From: Candidatus Aenigmatarchaeota archaeon
Lineage (GTDB): Archaea > Aenigmatarchaeota > Aenigmatarchaeia > QMZP01 > QMZT01
NCBI GenBank assembly: GCA_016932735.1
Contig: JAFGCI010000006.1
Coordinates: forward strand, 127,144-191,143
Direction: 5' to 3'
Length of the DNA: 64,000 nucleotides
Shown: positions 4,284 to 18,850 of the stretch, piece after piece
Numbering within the stretch: position 1 is the first letter of the stretch
How the letters are laid out: the number at the start of each line of letters is the position of its first letter
The notes under the pieces: generated by a model
The model's database searches: none
What the model saw: only the letters and a program-made list of their open reading frames with translations
Told to the model about the DNA's origin: nothing
Position numbers and translations under genes: made by a program

Positions 4284-6308
4284 ATGGACTATCCGGATAT
4301 AAAAGCAGGTACAGAAGAAGCGCAGGAAATCATAAAGCTAGACGACATGATAGACAGGCTTGAAAACTTCCTGGACCAGAAATACAAGAAAGAGCTTCTC
4401 AAGGTCTCCCAGAAAGAACAGCCTCTTGTCATTGAATTCAAGAAGCTGGACAAATCCGTCTTTGCACTTTCTGAATTCCTTGTCAGCAACCCGGACAAAT
4501 TCTTTGAAGCCTCTGAAAAGGCAATAGCAAGGATGGACATCCCGAACCAGGTAAAGCTGCGTGTAATGGGCCTTCCGGAAGCTGTTATAATCAGGAACCT
4601 CAGGGCTGAACACCTGGGGAAATTCATTTCTATCGAGGGTATGGTAAAGAGAGCTTCCGAGATAAGGCCGGAAATCGTTGAGACTATATGGCACTGCGCA
4701 GGCTGCAACAGCGATATCAATCAGCCTGTTAAGATGGGATTCGTCACGAAGCCTTACATATGTCCTCATTGTAGGAAAAGAGAGGATTTCATCCGCAAGG
4801 GAAAGGTAATGAAAGATACAAGATGGGTTACAATTGAAGAGCCTTACGAGTTAACAGAGGGCGACCGGCCTTCACAGCTTACTGTTGTCATGAAAGAGGA
4901 CCTTGTCTCACAGGACGGGAGGCGAAACAGCGACCCTGGAAACAGGGTAAAGGTCACCGGCGTTATGAGGGAGATACCTAAAGGAAAGCCGACTTCTGTC
5001 AAAATGGATTTTTATCTTGAGGCTAACCATGTGGAGCCTGTGGAAATGGGCTGGAATATGATTGAATTCACGAAAGAGAACATAAAGGAAATTAAGGATA
5101 TGGCAGCCGATCCTAAGATTTATGAAAGGCTTGTCGATTCCCTTGCGCCTTCGCTATACGGCCTGAGGGAGATAAAGGAGGCAATCATTCTTCAGTTATT
5201 CGGCGGTGTTGGCCAGAGGCTTCCGGACGGAACGCATTTCAGGGGTGATATACACATACTCATAATCGGTGACCCGTCTGCGGGCAAATCGCAGCTTCTG
5301 AAGATGGTGCCGGAGATAATCCCGAGGGGAAAATACGTATCAGGCAAAGGTGTCACGGGAGCGGGTCTTACCGCAACGGTCCTGAAGGATGAGCTTTCGG
5401 GCGGATGGGTGCTTGAGGCGGGGGCGCTCGTCCTTGCCAATAAAGGTCTTCTGGCGATTGACGAGTTCGAGAAGATGGAACAGCAGGATCAGGTCGCGAT
5501 GCACGAAGCCCTTGAACAGGGATCGATTTCAATTGCAAAGGCTTCAATTGTAGCGACGCTTCCCGCAAAAACATCAGTCCTTGCCGGCGGAAACCCCACC
5601 AATTCAAGGTTTGACCCTTACCAGCCTATTGCAAAGCAGATAACGATTCCGGAGACGCTTCTTTCGCGTTTCGACCTTAAGTTCGCATTAAGGGATGTCC
5701 CCAATGAAGAGCAGGATAAGATACTCGTAGAGCATGTCCTGAAAGTCAGGGAAGGCGACAAGGATGTTGCTATGCCCGCAGTTGACAAGGAGCTCGTCAG
5801 AAAATACATAGCGTATGCGAAGGAGAACTGCAAACCGGTACTGACGCATGAAGCCGGAAAGACTCTTAGGAATTTTTATGTCGACATGAGAAAGAAGTCC
5901 GAGGGAACTGACAATGTTTCCATAACTTTAAGGCAGTTTGAGGGTCTCGTCCGTCTGGCAGCCGCATCAGCAAGAGTCCAGCTTTCTGATGTCATCAGGA
6001 AGGAGGACGCGAAAAGAGCTATCAAGCTCATGAAGTTCTCTCTAGTACAACTCGGTTATGATTACGAGACCGGTCAGATAGATGTCGACCGTTCTGAAGG
6101 CGCCACAAGCTCAAGCGAAAGGTCCAAGATAAGGAGATTGATGGAGATAATCGACATAATGTCCGAGACGGAGAAAGAGATGAAGATTTCCAAGATACGC
6201 GAGAAGGCAAAGGCGCAGGGCATAGATAACATTGATGAGATGATAGAGAAACTCAAGCTTCAGGGCATCCTGTGGGAGCCGAATCCGGGATTTGTCCAGA
6301 AGGCCTAG
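4284..6308 (+). CDS. mcm: MCM replicative helicase
   Basis: Zn finger CAGC..CPHC, Walker A GDPSAGKSQ, Walker B IDEFEKM, arginine finger SRFD, ITLRQFEGLVR; no intein. Confidence 0.97.
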   Translation: MDYPDIKAGTEEAQEIIKLDDMIDRLENFLDQKYKKELLKVSQKEQPLVIEFKKLDKSVFALSEFLVSNPDKFFEASEKAIARMDIPNQVKLRVMGLPEAVIIRNLRAEHLGKFISIEGMVKRASEIRPEIVETIWHCAGCNSDINQPVKMGFVTKPYICPHCRKREDFIRKGKVMKDTRWVTIEEPYELTEGDRPSQLTVVMKEDLVSQDGRRNSDPGNRVKVTGVMREIPKGKPTSVKMDFYLEANHVEPVEMGWNMIEFTKENIKEIKDMAADPKIYERLVDSLAPSLYGLREIKEAIILQLFGGVGQRLPDGTHFRGDIHILIIGDPSAGKSQLLKMVPEIIPRGKYVSGKGVTGAGLTATVLKDELSGGWVLEAGALVLANKGLLAIDEFEKMEQQDQVAMHEALEQGSISIAKASIVATLPAKTSVLAGGNPTNSRFDPYQPIAKQITIPETLLSRFDLKFALRDVPNEEQDKILVEHVLKVREGDKDVAMPAVDKELVRKYIAYAKENCKPVLTHEAGKTLRNFYVDMRKKSEGTDNVSITLRQFEGLVRLAAASARVQLSDVIRKEDAKRAIKLMKFSLVQLGYDYETGQIDVDRSEGATSSSERSKIRRLMEIIDIMSETEKEMKISKIREKAKAQGIDNIDEMIEKLKLQGILWEPNPGFVQKA

Positions 6309-12088: not shown

Positions 12089-12200
12089 TTCCTGAGTTTT
12101 CATTCTTCTTCCACTTGAGTGCTTCTTTGCGAACGCAAATTCAGAAAGACGCAGATGAAATCTGCGTCAATCCGGCCTTTGCTTCTGGAAAGAAGGCCTC
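12089..12200 (-). other. About 112-nt tRNA intron in the D-loop (after position 20) with BHB-like motif
   Basis: Central helix CCTG/CAGG, bulges GT|G and AA|G, intron helix AG/CT; junction ambiguous by 2 nt (112 or 114 nt). Confidence 0.82.
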
Positions 12201-16529: not shown

Positions 16530-17402
16530 CTATTTCTCCTCTCGTTTTGTTTCTTCAACCGTCTCTTCTGCGTTTTTTGTGATTGCAATGGACTCGGTTG
16601 GGCTCTTATCACCTTTTCTTGAACTCAGGTTCTTCAGGGCATCGAATATTGCAATGGCAAGATTCGTTCTGGTTCCTGTCTGGCCCGAAGCGTTGACCCA
16701 TATATCCTTTATCCCGGCAATCTGGAATATTTTCTTGGATTCCTTGTCTGAAACAATACCTACGCCTTTTGGCGTCGGAAGGAATTTTACGATAACAGAG
16801 CCTCTCTTGGCTTCTGTCTTATAAGGGATAGAATGGCTCCCGCCACAGTTGCACTCCCATGAACCGCAACCCATCTTTACCCTTATCACTTTGAGCTTTG
16901 CCTGTTTTGTGGCTTTCTCTATTGCAATTCGGTGCTCCTGGGACGATGCGCTTCCTATTCCTACAATACCGTCGCCGTTTCCCACTACAATAAGAGCATT
17001 AAGTGTCATTCTTCTTCCGGATTTATGCATCCTGGCTGTCATTTTGGTGGCAGTCCTTCTTATACCGCCGCCCTTTCCCGGAGTTCCTCCTATGTAAATT
17101 ATCTCCTGCTGTAGGTCCGGAACAAGATAATCCACTATCTCCGGCTCAAGAATGACCTTTCCTTCAGCAAAAACATCATCAATCGTCTTGTATTTGCCTT
17201 CAACTACGTCCCTGCCGAGCTGAGTTCTCGGAACCCAGACGACTTCTTCTTCTCTTCTCGGAGACCTTCTTCCATCGTTTCTGCCCCTTCTGGTGTTTCT
17301 TCTTCCGTCATTTCTTCTACTATCACTGCTTCTTCTACCATCACTGGTTCTTCTACTATCACTGTTTTTTCTACCATCAATTCTGCCAATTTCTCCGGCC
17401 AT
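16530..17402 (-). CDS. rps5: 30S ribosomal protein uS5 with Arg/Asp/Ser repeat N-terminal extension
   Basis: WVPRTQLG, GNGDGIVG, GCGSWEC.C, P.PKGVG; start 17402 chosen (alternatives 17414, 17417). Confidence 0.95.
   Translation of the reverse strand: MAGEIGRIDGRKNSDSRRTSDGRRSSDSRRNDGRRNTRRGRNDGRRSPRREEEVVWVPRTQLGRDVVEGKYKTIDDVFAEGKVILEPEIVDYLVPDLQQEIIYIGGTPGKGGGIRRTATKMTARMHKSGRRMTLNALIVVGNGDGIVGIGSASSQEHRIAIEKATKQAKLKVIRVKMGCGSWECNCGGSHSIPYKTEAKRGSVIVKFLPTPKGVGIVSDKESKKIFQIAGIKDIWVNASGQTGTRTNLAIAIFDALKNLSSRKGDKSPTESIAITKNAEETVEETKREEK
17312..17383. repeat. 4 x 18-nt in-frame tandem repeat within uS5 5' end
   Basis: Units TTCTTCTAC(T/C)ATCACTGN at 17312, 17330, 17348, degenerate at 17366; encodes xSD(G/S)RR. 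Confidence 0.9.
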
Positions 17403-17510
17403 CGTATCAACCATCACTATAATTCAAATACATTAATTAATAATGCTATATATTTATATCTTACCGGTTACATCTCATTTTACAAAAAGATATATAAATA
17501 CCACTCATTC

Positions 17511-17631
17511 GCGGACTCTCACCGCTTTAGCGGTAGGTATCTTATGTATGTTCTGCACATTCTCAGAACGGGCGCGGCACACTAAGCGCCTATTTATCAG
17601 TTTTGCCTTAGATGAAATCTAAGGATTACCG
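17511..17631 (+). ncRNA. Candidate small structured RNA (four hairpins); strand inferred from an upstream TATA box
   Basis: Purine run plus ATATATAAATA at 17484-17500; hairpins at 17521-17534, 17550-17569, 17571-17590, 17606-17624; no ORF. Confidence 0.35.
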
Positions 17632-17636
17632 ATTTA

Positions 17637-17711
17637 TAGCGGGGGATGGATTTGAACCAACGACCTCTGGGTTATGAGCCCAGCGAGCACTCCAGGCTGC
17701 TCTACCCCGCT
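17637..17711 (-). tRNA. tRNA-iMet: Initiator tRNA-Met(CAU)
   Basis: AGCGGGG..CCCCGCT A with A1:U72, A11:U24, anticodon arm CTGGG CTCATAA CCCAG with three G:C pairs. Confidence 0.96.
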
Positions 17712-17836
17712 ATCTTTGGACAGATACCTATTCATGTATATGTCGGTTTTCGGACAGTAATTTATGCGTGTCTGCCTTATACCTACATATTATATCTATA
17801 GCGCTTTTAAAGGTAACTAAAACCCAATATTAAATT

Positions 17837-18850
17837 ATGAGTTCTCTGATGAAAGCCATGGTTCTTGAAAGTTGTGCCGATATAGACGAATCTCCCCTCA
17901 GACTGAAAGATGTTCAGATACCTGAGCCCGGAAATAAAGAGGTCAGGATCCGGGTAAGCGCATGCGGTGTATGCAGGACCGACCTGCATACGATTGAAGG
18001 CGATATTGGATATCCCGATTTGCCTTTAATCCCCGGCCATCAGATTATAGGTAAGATAGATAAGCTCGGCAAAAATGCAAAGAGGTTCAAAATCGGCGAC
18101 AGGATAGGAATTGCATGGCTCCGCCATACATGCGGTAATTGCGTATTGTGCAAGGACGGAAAGGAAAACCTTTGCGAAAACTCTTTGTTCACTGGATATC
18201 ATAAGAATGGGGGTTATGCCGAATATGCCATTGTTCCTGAAGATTTTGCATATGAAATACCAAAGATTTTCACAGATGAGGAAGCTACGCCTCTCCTCTG
18301 CGGGGGAATAATAGGCTACAGATGCCTTAAAAGGGCCGGAGTAAAGCCCGGTCAGTCTCTGCTTCTTAACGGTTTCGGCTCATCGGCGCATATAGTAATC
18401 CAGATAGCAAAATATTGGGGATGCAAGGTGTATGTCGTCTCAAGAAACCTGAATCACCAAAACCTTGCGAGGAAATTCGGGGCTTTCTGGGTCGGGGGAA
18501 GTACGTCAGGCGTCCCTGAAAATGTCGATGCCGCTATAATCTTCGCTCCGGCAGGGAATCTTGTCCCGCAGGTTCTCGAAAAGCTGAAAAAAGGCGGAAC
18601 AGTTGCACTGGGGGGAATTTACATGTCGGACATCCCTGAGATGAACTACGAGAAGCACCTATTCTATGAGAAGAATATACACAGCGTCACAAGCAATACC
18701 AGAAAAGATGGGGAAGAACTGCTAAAAATTGTAGCAAAGATACCAATAAGGCCCCAGACCAATACATACCCTCTTGAAAAAGCGAATGAAGCCTTACAGG
18801 ACTTAAAGCATGATAAGATAGAAGGGACAGCTGTATTGGTTCCTGTATAG
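17837..18850 (+). CDS. adh: Zinc-dependent alcohol dehydrogenase (MDR family)
   Basis: CGVCRTDLH, PGHQ, C..C..C.......C structural Zn site, LLCGG. Confidence 0.92.
   Translation: MSSLMKAMVLESCADIDESPLRLKDVQIPEPGNKEVRIRVSACGVCRTDLHTIEGDIGYPDLPLIPGHQIIGKIDKLGKNAKRFKIGDRIGIAWLRHTCGNCVLCKDGKENLCENSLFTGYHKNGGYAEYAIVPEDFAYEIPKIFTDEEATPLLCGGIIGYRCLKRAGVKPGQSLLLNGFGSSAHIVIQIAKYWGCKVYVVSRNLNHQNLARKFGAFWVGGSTSGVPENVDAAIIFAPAGNLVPQVLEKLKKGGTVALGGIYMSDIPEMNYEKHLFYEKNIHSVTSNTRKDGEELLKIVAKIPIRPQTNTYPLEKANEALQDLKHDKIEGTAVLVPV

Follow-up and report, generated by a model that had tools for sequence, protein, structure and literature searches.

Bacterial 3'ETS sponges are RNAs derived from the external transcribed spacers of precursor tRNAs. 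Among trailer-derived RNAs, the fragments of tRF-1 type are surveyed in PMC4203973. Archaeal tRNA introns transpose, on a large scale in the Thermoproteales according to the account of Fujishima et al. (2010) given in PMC4033280, and DPANN archaea possess heavily disrupted tRNA genes together with endonucleases of broad specificity (PMC3239211, PMC5829648). Since small DPANN genomes hold little spare DNA, a folded spacer of 135 nt that is partly more conserved than its neighbour genes deserves an explanation. Such a spacer follows the initiator tRNA gene (tRNA-iMet) in the genome described here. In the best-supported reading it would be young and composite, built from a variable hairpin, two constrained hairpins and a hairpin module of a tRNA-intron family.

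The window, which is the whole 64,000-nt stretch of DNA analysed here, represents contig 11 of a 1.18 Mb genome (42.5% GC, about 91% complete). The genome is Aenigmarchaeota-like (DPANN), and the named entries among the S5 homologues are mostly Aenigmarchaeota. The spacer lies in a 233-nt gap, flanked by tRNA-iMet on one side and by the S5-L30-L15-SecY operon on the other, both on the minus strand. Relatives retrieved via look-ups based on S5 and on alcohol dehydrogenase (ADH) provide four distinct spacer variants, represented by this genome (G000), by the closer metagenomic relative L117 (same sequence as L118 and L035; S5 81% identical), by G002 (same as L120, L036 and L013) and by G001 (L016). 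The features of the locus are as follows.

16530–17403, minus strand: ribosomal protein S5 (Pfam S5 N- and C-terminal domains), first gene of S5-L30-L15-SecY
17447–17460, minus strand: box A, the same motif as box B in the opposite direction
17484–17500, either strand: box B, on the plus strand an A-rich, BRE-like run and then a TATA-like one, on the minus strand a TATA-like U-rich tract
17520–17535, minus strand: hairpin 1, 6 bp on this strand and a loop of 4 nt; the patch of about 32 nt around it is roughly half diverged
17550–17569, minus strand: hairpin 2, 6 bp with an 8-nt loop, 100% identical in L117
17571–17590, minus strand: hairpin 3, 5 bp with a 10-nt loop, kept in L117 with an identical loop
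17596–17633, minus strand: hairpin-4 module, an outer stem of 6 bp (one G.U), then an internal loop and an inner stem of 8 bp capped by a UUC loop
17637–17711, minus strand: tRNA-iMet (CAU), found by ARAGORN and by Rfam (RF00005, 59.2 bits)
17837–18850, plus strand: zinc alcohol dehydrogenase, beginning at 17837

The tRNA-iMet gene of G000 is intronless and does not encode CCA. Its Rfam alignment pairs A1 with U72 and gives the anticodon stem three G-C pairs. The adjoining position of tRNA-iMet and S5 is confined to the genus of G000. The start of S5 is likely the ATG at 17403. G002 and G001 have the upstream ATG in another frame, their S5 proteins beginning at the second ATG, and the SD-like element at 17407–17414 is kept irrespective of reading frame; because this element is conserved without regard to frame, the annotated start (MVDTM...) is probably four codons too long. 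The N-terminus of S5 (window 17260–17400) carries a low-complexity extension of about 50–60 residues, rich in Arg/Ser/Asp/Gly, which varies in length and sequence among close relatives. On the other side of the tRNA, the named homologues of ADH outside its own genus (61–66% identical) are almost all bacterial, for example from Syntrophobacteraceae and Thermodesulforhabdus, which suggests that the gene was acquired from bacteria. A palindromic TATA box (window 17801–17813) is located 24 nt ahead of the ADH start codon. In G002 (L013) the equivalent box is at the same time 25 nt upstream of where mature tRNA-iMet begins on the opposite strand, so that one box may serve both directions as a bidirectional promoter. 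On the tRNA side of this box, G000 is about 57 nt longer than G002.

The earlier note described four consecutive stems downstream of a BRE/TATA-like motif in ORF-free sequence. The motif is present, with AAAAAG at 17484–17489 and the TATA-like run at 17490–17500, and so are the stems, at 17521–17525/17530–17534, 17550–17555/17564–17569, 17571–17575/17586–17590 and 17606–17613/17617–17624. RNAfold recovers the four hairpins from 136 nt on both strands. Relative to dinucleotide shuffles, the plus-strand fold (−38.0 kcal/mol) has a z-score of −2.63, with 3 of 200 shuffles equally good, and the minus-strand fold (−42.5 kcal/mol) a z-score of −3.45, with none of 200 equally good. The hairpin-4 module alone supplies much of this excess stability (z −4.45 on the minus strand, −2.56 on the plus strand), folding to −12.9 kcal/mol on the minus strand versus −10.1 on the plus strand. 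Across the four genus variants, the minus-strand fold is never less stable than its plus-strand counterpart (minus/plus −43.7/−38.0, −28.6/−27.5, −12.6/−8.9 and −6.3/−1.7 kcal/mol), and the z-scores of the L117, G002 and G001 spacers are unremarkable. The alternative closure of 17531–17536 with 17626–17631 can form with five Watson-Crick pairs and one G.U, but it lies outside the minimum-energy fold of either strand. The region is not free of open reading frames, since a 59-codon ATG ORF (17443–17622, plus strand) crosses the hairpins. In L117 this ORF is likewise uninterrupted, but its product departs from that of G000 at 12 of the 13 residues over the hairpin-1 patch and throughout the C-terminus. 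As its product is unconserved in the nearest relative and its start lies inside the S5 promoter region, we do not take it for a gene encoding a small protein.

The four variants share the gene order and differ in the spacer. Between the 3' end of the tRNA and the TATA-like box B lie 138 nt in G000, 107 nt in L117, 59 nt in G002 and 29 nt in G001. G002 and G001 are without hairpins 2–4, with small hairpins at the site equivalent to hairpin 1; thus, a hairpin beside box B is found in all four variants, its sequence being free to change. Hairpins 2 and 3 are common to one sister lineage only, where they are almost invariant, loops included. The search near tRNA-iMet in relatives that the earlier note had suggested thus returns four spacer versions within the genus, with hairpins 1–3 in L117, whereas the four-hairpin unit occurs only in G000. 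In L117 an unrelated 14-nt segment takes the place of the hairpin-4 module of G000 (about 45 nt), so the arm 17626–17631 that would close the cloverleaf is gone together with hairpin 4. Because both are missing from the only relative sharing the element, the four-hairpin or cloverleaf unit is not conserved.

Conservation along the spacer is uneven when G000 is compared with L117, the reference being coding DNA at about 80% identity. Positions 17437–17486 are 100% identical, and 17537–17586, containing hairpins 2 and 3 with their loops, are 92% identical. The S5 promoter/leader (window 17404–17505) is 100% identical over about 90 nt, and this S5-proximal part is also kept, nearly identical, in a third lineage, L115. 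Roughly half of the bases are changed, with no indel, in the patch of about 32 nt around hairpin 1. The assemblies of three close relatives end 12–37 nt upstream of S5 (L115:1–37, L116:1–12 and L119:1–19), which hints at strain variation or assembly trouble in the spacer.

The pairing pattern bears on the strand. On the minus strand hairpins 1–3 comprise 17 pairs, and 34 of 34 cells pair in G000 and L117. Three pairs of hairpin 1 are changed on both sides between the two genomes with the pairing kept. Two further pairs are changed on one side, becoming U.G in the minus-strand reading: one belongs to hairpin 1, and the other is the single stem change of hairpin 3. The three U.G cells of hairpins 1–3 are all A.C mismatches on the plus strand. 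Likewise, the outer stem of hairpin 4 contains a G.U on the minus strand that is A.C on the plus strand. The reverse, G.U only on the plus strand, applies to a few optional outer pairs. Slid controls pair in 29–59% of cells, and shuffle controls reach the observed values in 50 of 500 trials, so the pairing test is not significant alone. The pairing evidence for the minus strand is therefore suggestive but thin, with only two informative sequences and a handful of substitutions.

Transcribed on the minus strand together with tRNA-iMet, the hairpins may make up a structured 3' trailer of its primary transcript, a reading that we hold to be evenly balanced between right and wrong. The earlier note had offered it as a fallback, and it is favoured by position, by minus-strand pairing and fold energies, by the lack of a T run, by the tRNA-sense orientation that hairpin 4 shares with the intron modules and by the constraint on the spacer relative to coding DNA. 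The region abuts the 3' end of tRNA-iMet on the same strand, and no terminator lies between them. Transcription would begin upstream of tRNA-iMet, whose 3' end has no T-rich stop signal, unlike the six other tRNA genes checked: these have TT or T-rich sequence immediately after the 3' end, and iMet is followed by AAATCGG. Read-through on the minus strand would then cover a folded spacer of about 135–150 nt, comprising the hairpin-4 module followed by hairpins 3, 2 and 1. The transcript would most likely end at the U-rich tract and T5 run (17499–17484) ahead of box A, and RNase Z would free the tRNA, leaving a folded trailer RNA. A 9-nt perfect complement links the 5' leader of tRNA-iMet (17722–17730) with the trailer (17534–17542). 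As a leader-trailer processing stem it has been set aside; it has by estimate a chance occurrence of about 5%, is apparently not kept in L117 and is probably fortuitous.

Boxes A and B are kept in all four genus variants, box A also in L115, and the distance between them varies from about 31 to 54 nt. Box A is the probable promoter of the S5 operon, about 25 nt upstream of a short leader with the SD-like element; this geometry is modelled on ADH, whose TATA box precedes its ATG by 24 nt. Box B can be read in either direction. On the minus strand it ends in the T5 run 17488–17484, the first run of at least four T after the tRNA, which is not conserved in G002 or G001. The strand asymmetry of its hexamers cancels out, and the genomic context of its 9-mer is mixed. 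The only T4 run on the plus strand of the hairpin region is 17601–17604, ahead of hairpin 4. Two points stand against the trailer here: box B makes a good archaeal promoter on the plus strand, mirroring box A like a back-to-back divergent pair, and a plus-strand transcript is predicted to begin near 17521, where hairpin 1 has its first base. In addition, a passive trailer leaves the near-invariant loops of hairpins 2 and 3 unexplained.

By sequence comparison hairpin 4 is a copy of a hairpin module otherwise found in tRNA introns of the family. It forms a 35-nt insert (17597–17631) that is present only in G000 and absent from L117, G002 and G001, and the insert is flanked by a 5-nt direct repeat (17632–17636 and 17592–17596). 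A recent insertion would best explain these observations. The 11-nt core of hairpin 4 occurs 35 times in 23 genomes of the family, compared with 3 occurrences of a reversed control. Further copies of the module were found via this 11-mer itself; among the matches listed, 13 extend by 4–5 covarying pairs and the rest by at most 3, mostly 0–2. The extended copies lie within tRNA genes, in the T-loop, the D-loop and other sites, including the spacer tRNA of an rRNA operon. Among the copies with a readable tRNA context the UUC loop is in tRNA sense, with one clear exception, L167. Correspondingly, the stem of hairpin 4 extends by four pairs, and its UUC loop is in tRNA sense relative to tRNA-iMet. 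Particularly, hairpin 4 and the intron copy in tRNA-Thr (12148–12168) agree in core, loop orientation, arm length and flanking bases. Hairpin 4 is nevertheless outside the tRNA body, 1–40 nt past the 3' end of tRNA-iMet. By eye, no bulge-helix-bulge is seen at its borders, and the fold has an internal loop instead of two bulges 4 bp apart. As a copy of a tRNA-intron module, hairpin 4 argues against a conserved stand-alone small RNA gene in the spacer.

The tRNA genes themselves vary within the genus. The tRNA-iMet of G000 carries no intron, and those of L117, G002 and G001 carry two each: the first follows the anticodon loop, the second interrupts the T-loop, and they range in length from about 13 to about 97 nt. 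These genes, at L117:1427–1650 and around 1500–1640 in L013 and L016, are missed by ARAGORN. With introns allowed, ARAGORN recognizes only six tRNA genes in the 1.18 Mb genome of G000, so most of its tRNAs must be disrupted by non-canonical introns.

Searches for known families bring little besides the tRNA. An Rfam scan, which the earlier note had called for, was run at gathering thresholds and at E values up to 10; only the tRNA at 17637–17711 (minus strand) scores, and the rest is noise. The assertion that the element is not 5S, SRP or RNase P thus holds, and no other Rfam family is matched either. No second match to the tRNA model is found near the hairpins, even at E up to 10. A cloverleaf or tRNA-like four-way junction was rejected, given this result and the absence of arm 17626–17631 and hairpin 4 in L117. 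The C box (RTGATGA, or even TGATG) is absent from both strands of 17480–17640, and a C/D box sRNA was discarded for lack of a C or C' box on either strand. An H/ACA reading was dropped as well, the ACA after hairpin 2 not being kept in L117. No similarity of the spacer to the rRNA of its own genome and no second copy of the hairpin element within G000, as expected of a repeat or mobile element, were found. A scan for sigma-70 promoters and intrinsic terminators gave nothing, and such a scan is not applicable to archaea.

Beyond the genus, BLAST and a covariance model (R1) reveal no homologue in the 90 other genomes of the order, where only an AT-rich, promoter-like motif recurs. R1 does match a multi-copy repeat at contig ends in G060, a genome from another family of the order. 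These matches resemble only hairpin 1 and the bases after it, and we treat them as chance or very remote similarity. The G060 repeat, about 55 nt long with two hairpins and mostly at contig ends (C47:1–55, C7:2–55, C44:4092–4146 and 5778–5881, C17, C23, C27 and C36), is probably the end of a mobile element. Exact and loop-anchored patterns find nothing beyond chance in GTDB species genomes and viral contigs; four bacterial matches are at or below the count that we estimate by chance for 18 specified bases in that collection. The case for a new RNA family is weak, two lineages sharing the element.

The reading placed foremost in the earlier note, a self-promoted plus-strand ncRNA of four hairpins or a cloverleaf, finds no support as a unit: hairpin 4 and the closing arm are missing in L117, hairpin 4 belongs in tRNA sense to the intron family, the substitutions keep minus-strand pairing only, and the T4 run precedes hairpin 4. 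The promoter-like box B itself is real and kept in all four variants, and it could face either strand. A shorter RNA, which we regard as rather unlikely, would start near 17521 from box B, comprise hairpins 1–3 and end after about 80 nt at the T4 run 17601–17604, hairpin 4 being excluded. The A-rich BRE-like run upstream of the TATA run in box B, mirroring a box A that fits an S5 promoter, is consistent with such an RNA, and two independent back-to-back promoters would be expected to be conserved at varying distance, as boxes A and B are. It would also accommodate the T4 run after hairpin 3 and the fact that 17437–17505 and hairpins 2–3 are far more conserved than coding DNA. However, read on the plus strand, three of the stem positions become A.C mismatches, L117 is without the T4 run after hairpin 3, and the candidate matches no Rfam family, lacks C/D boxes and has no homologue among the 90 other genomes of the order. 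Moreover, box B is only 29 nt (G001) and 59 nt (G002) away from the antisense tRNA, with no homologue of hairpins 2–3 in between, so that a conserved plus-strand promoter would mainly yield antisense-tRNA RNA there.

The spacer might also have no RNA function, which we find doubtful. It would then be debris at a genus-specific rearrangement junction, where S5 was separated from the ribosomal genes ahead of it and came to lie beside tRNA-iMet, and small palindromic insertions would have enlarged the spacer; or else a dimeric regulator of the S5 or tRNA promoters would use the palindromes of hairpins 2 and 3 as its DNA operators. The restriction of the tRNA-iMet/S5 arrangement to one genus, the range of spacer lengths (29 to 138 nt among four close variants), the inserted hairpin 4 with its direct repeat, the unremarkable z-scores of the other three variants and the lack of homologues elsewhere are all compatible with debris, and hairpins 2 and 3, like many protein-binding sites, form perfect inverted repeats around spacers of fixed length. 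Yet the pairing of hairpin 1 survives three double changes, and wobble pairs confined to one strand are not favoured by DNA palindromes. Hairpins 2 and 3 exceed coding DNA in conservation and thus are not neutral debris. Finally, the spacer could form a long structured 5' leader of the S5-L30-L15-SecY mRNA, co-transcribed with tRNA-iMet and carrying in hairpins 2/3 a site to which an autoregulatory ribosomal protein would bind. It would make sense to co-regulate initiator tRNA with ribosomal proteins, the strand is the same, the invariant loops suggest sequence-specific recognition, and G002 and G001 have no strong stop before S5. This leader is still very unlikely, given that S5 has its own conserved TATA box and a short SD-bearing leader, that a T5 run intervenes between hairpins and S5 in G000 and L117, that G002 and G001 have the same operon without the hairpins, and that the spacer does not resemble the rRNA of the genome.

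The putative structured trailer of tRNA-iMet could in principle do more than be discarded. We consider it quite unlikely, as a combined proposal, that RNase Z releases a stable trailer whose hairpin 2/3 loops bind a protein or target, coupling initiator-tRNA output to the ribosomal-protein/SecY operon, with hairpin 4 as a mobile intron module caught landing outside a tRNA body. If true, the hairpin-4 copy shows that tRNA-intron modules move on their own. Two points appear worth keeping: the copy of an intron module outside a tRNA, and the strongly conserved hairpins 2–3. The former implies that a tRNA-intron hairpin module can occur outside tRNA genes, which bears on the spread of archaeal tRNA introns, and a trailer of this kind would be an unusually long, structured archaeal example.

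Compared with independently transcribed archaeal sRNAs (C/D, H/ACA and other Rfam families), the candidate has a similar size (about 80–130 nt), a BRE/TATA-like motif upstream and stem-loops. It differs from them in having no C or C' box, no conserved ACA and no Rfam match, and in being conserved only as far as one sister lineage. Transposing archaeal tRNA introns are matched by hairpin 4 in its core, loop, covarying arms and flanks, which are those of the D-loop/T-loop intron hairpins of the family; the relatives' tRNA-iMet has two introns, and most tRNAs of G000 escape ARAGORN. In contrast to these introns, the hairpin-4 copy lies in the trailer, no bulge-helix-bulge is visible, and the adjoining tRNA is intronless. 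Relative to usual pre-tRNA 3' trailers and external transcribed spacers, the sources of tRF-1-type fragments (PMC4203973) and 3'ETS sponges, the putative trailer would be far longer (about 135–150 nt), more structured and lineage-specific in content, but like them it immediately follows the 3' end of a tRNA on the tRNA strand, would depend on RNase Z for its release and would end at a U-rich tract.
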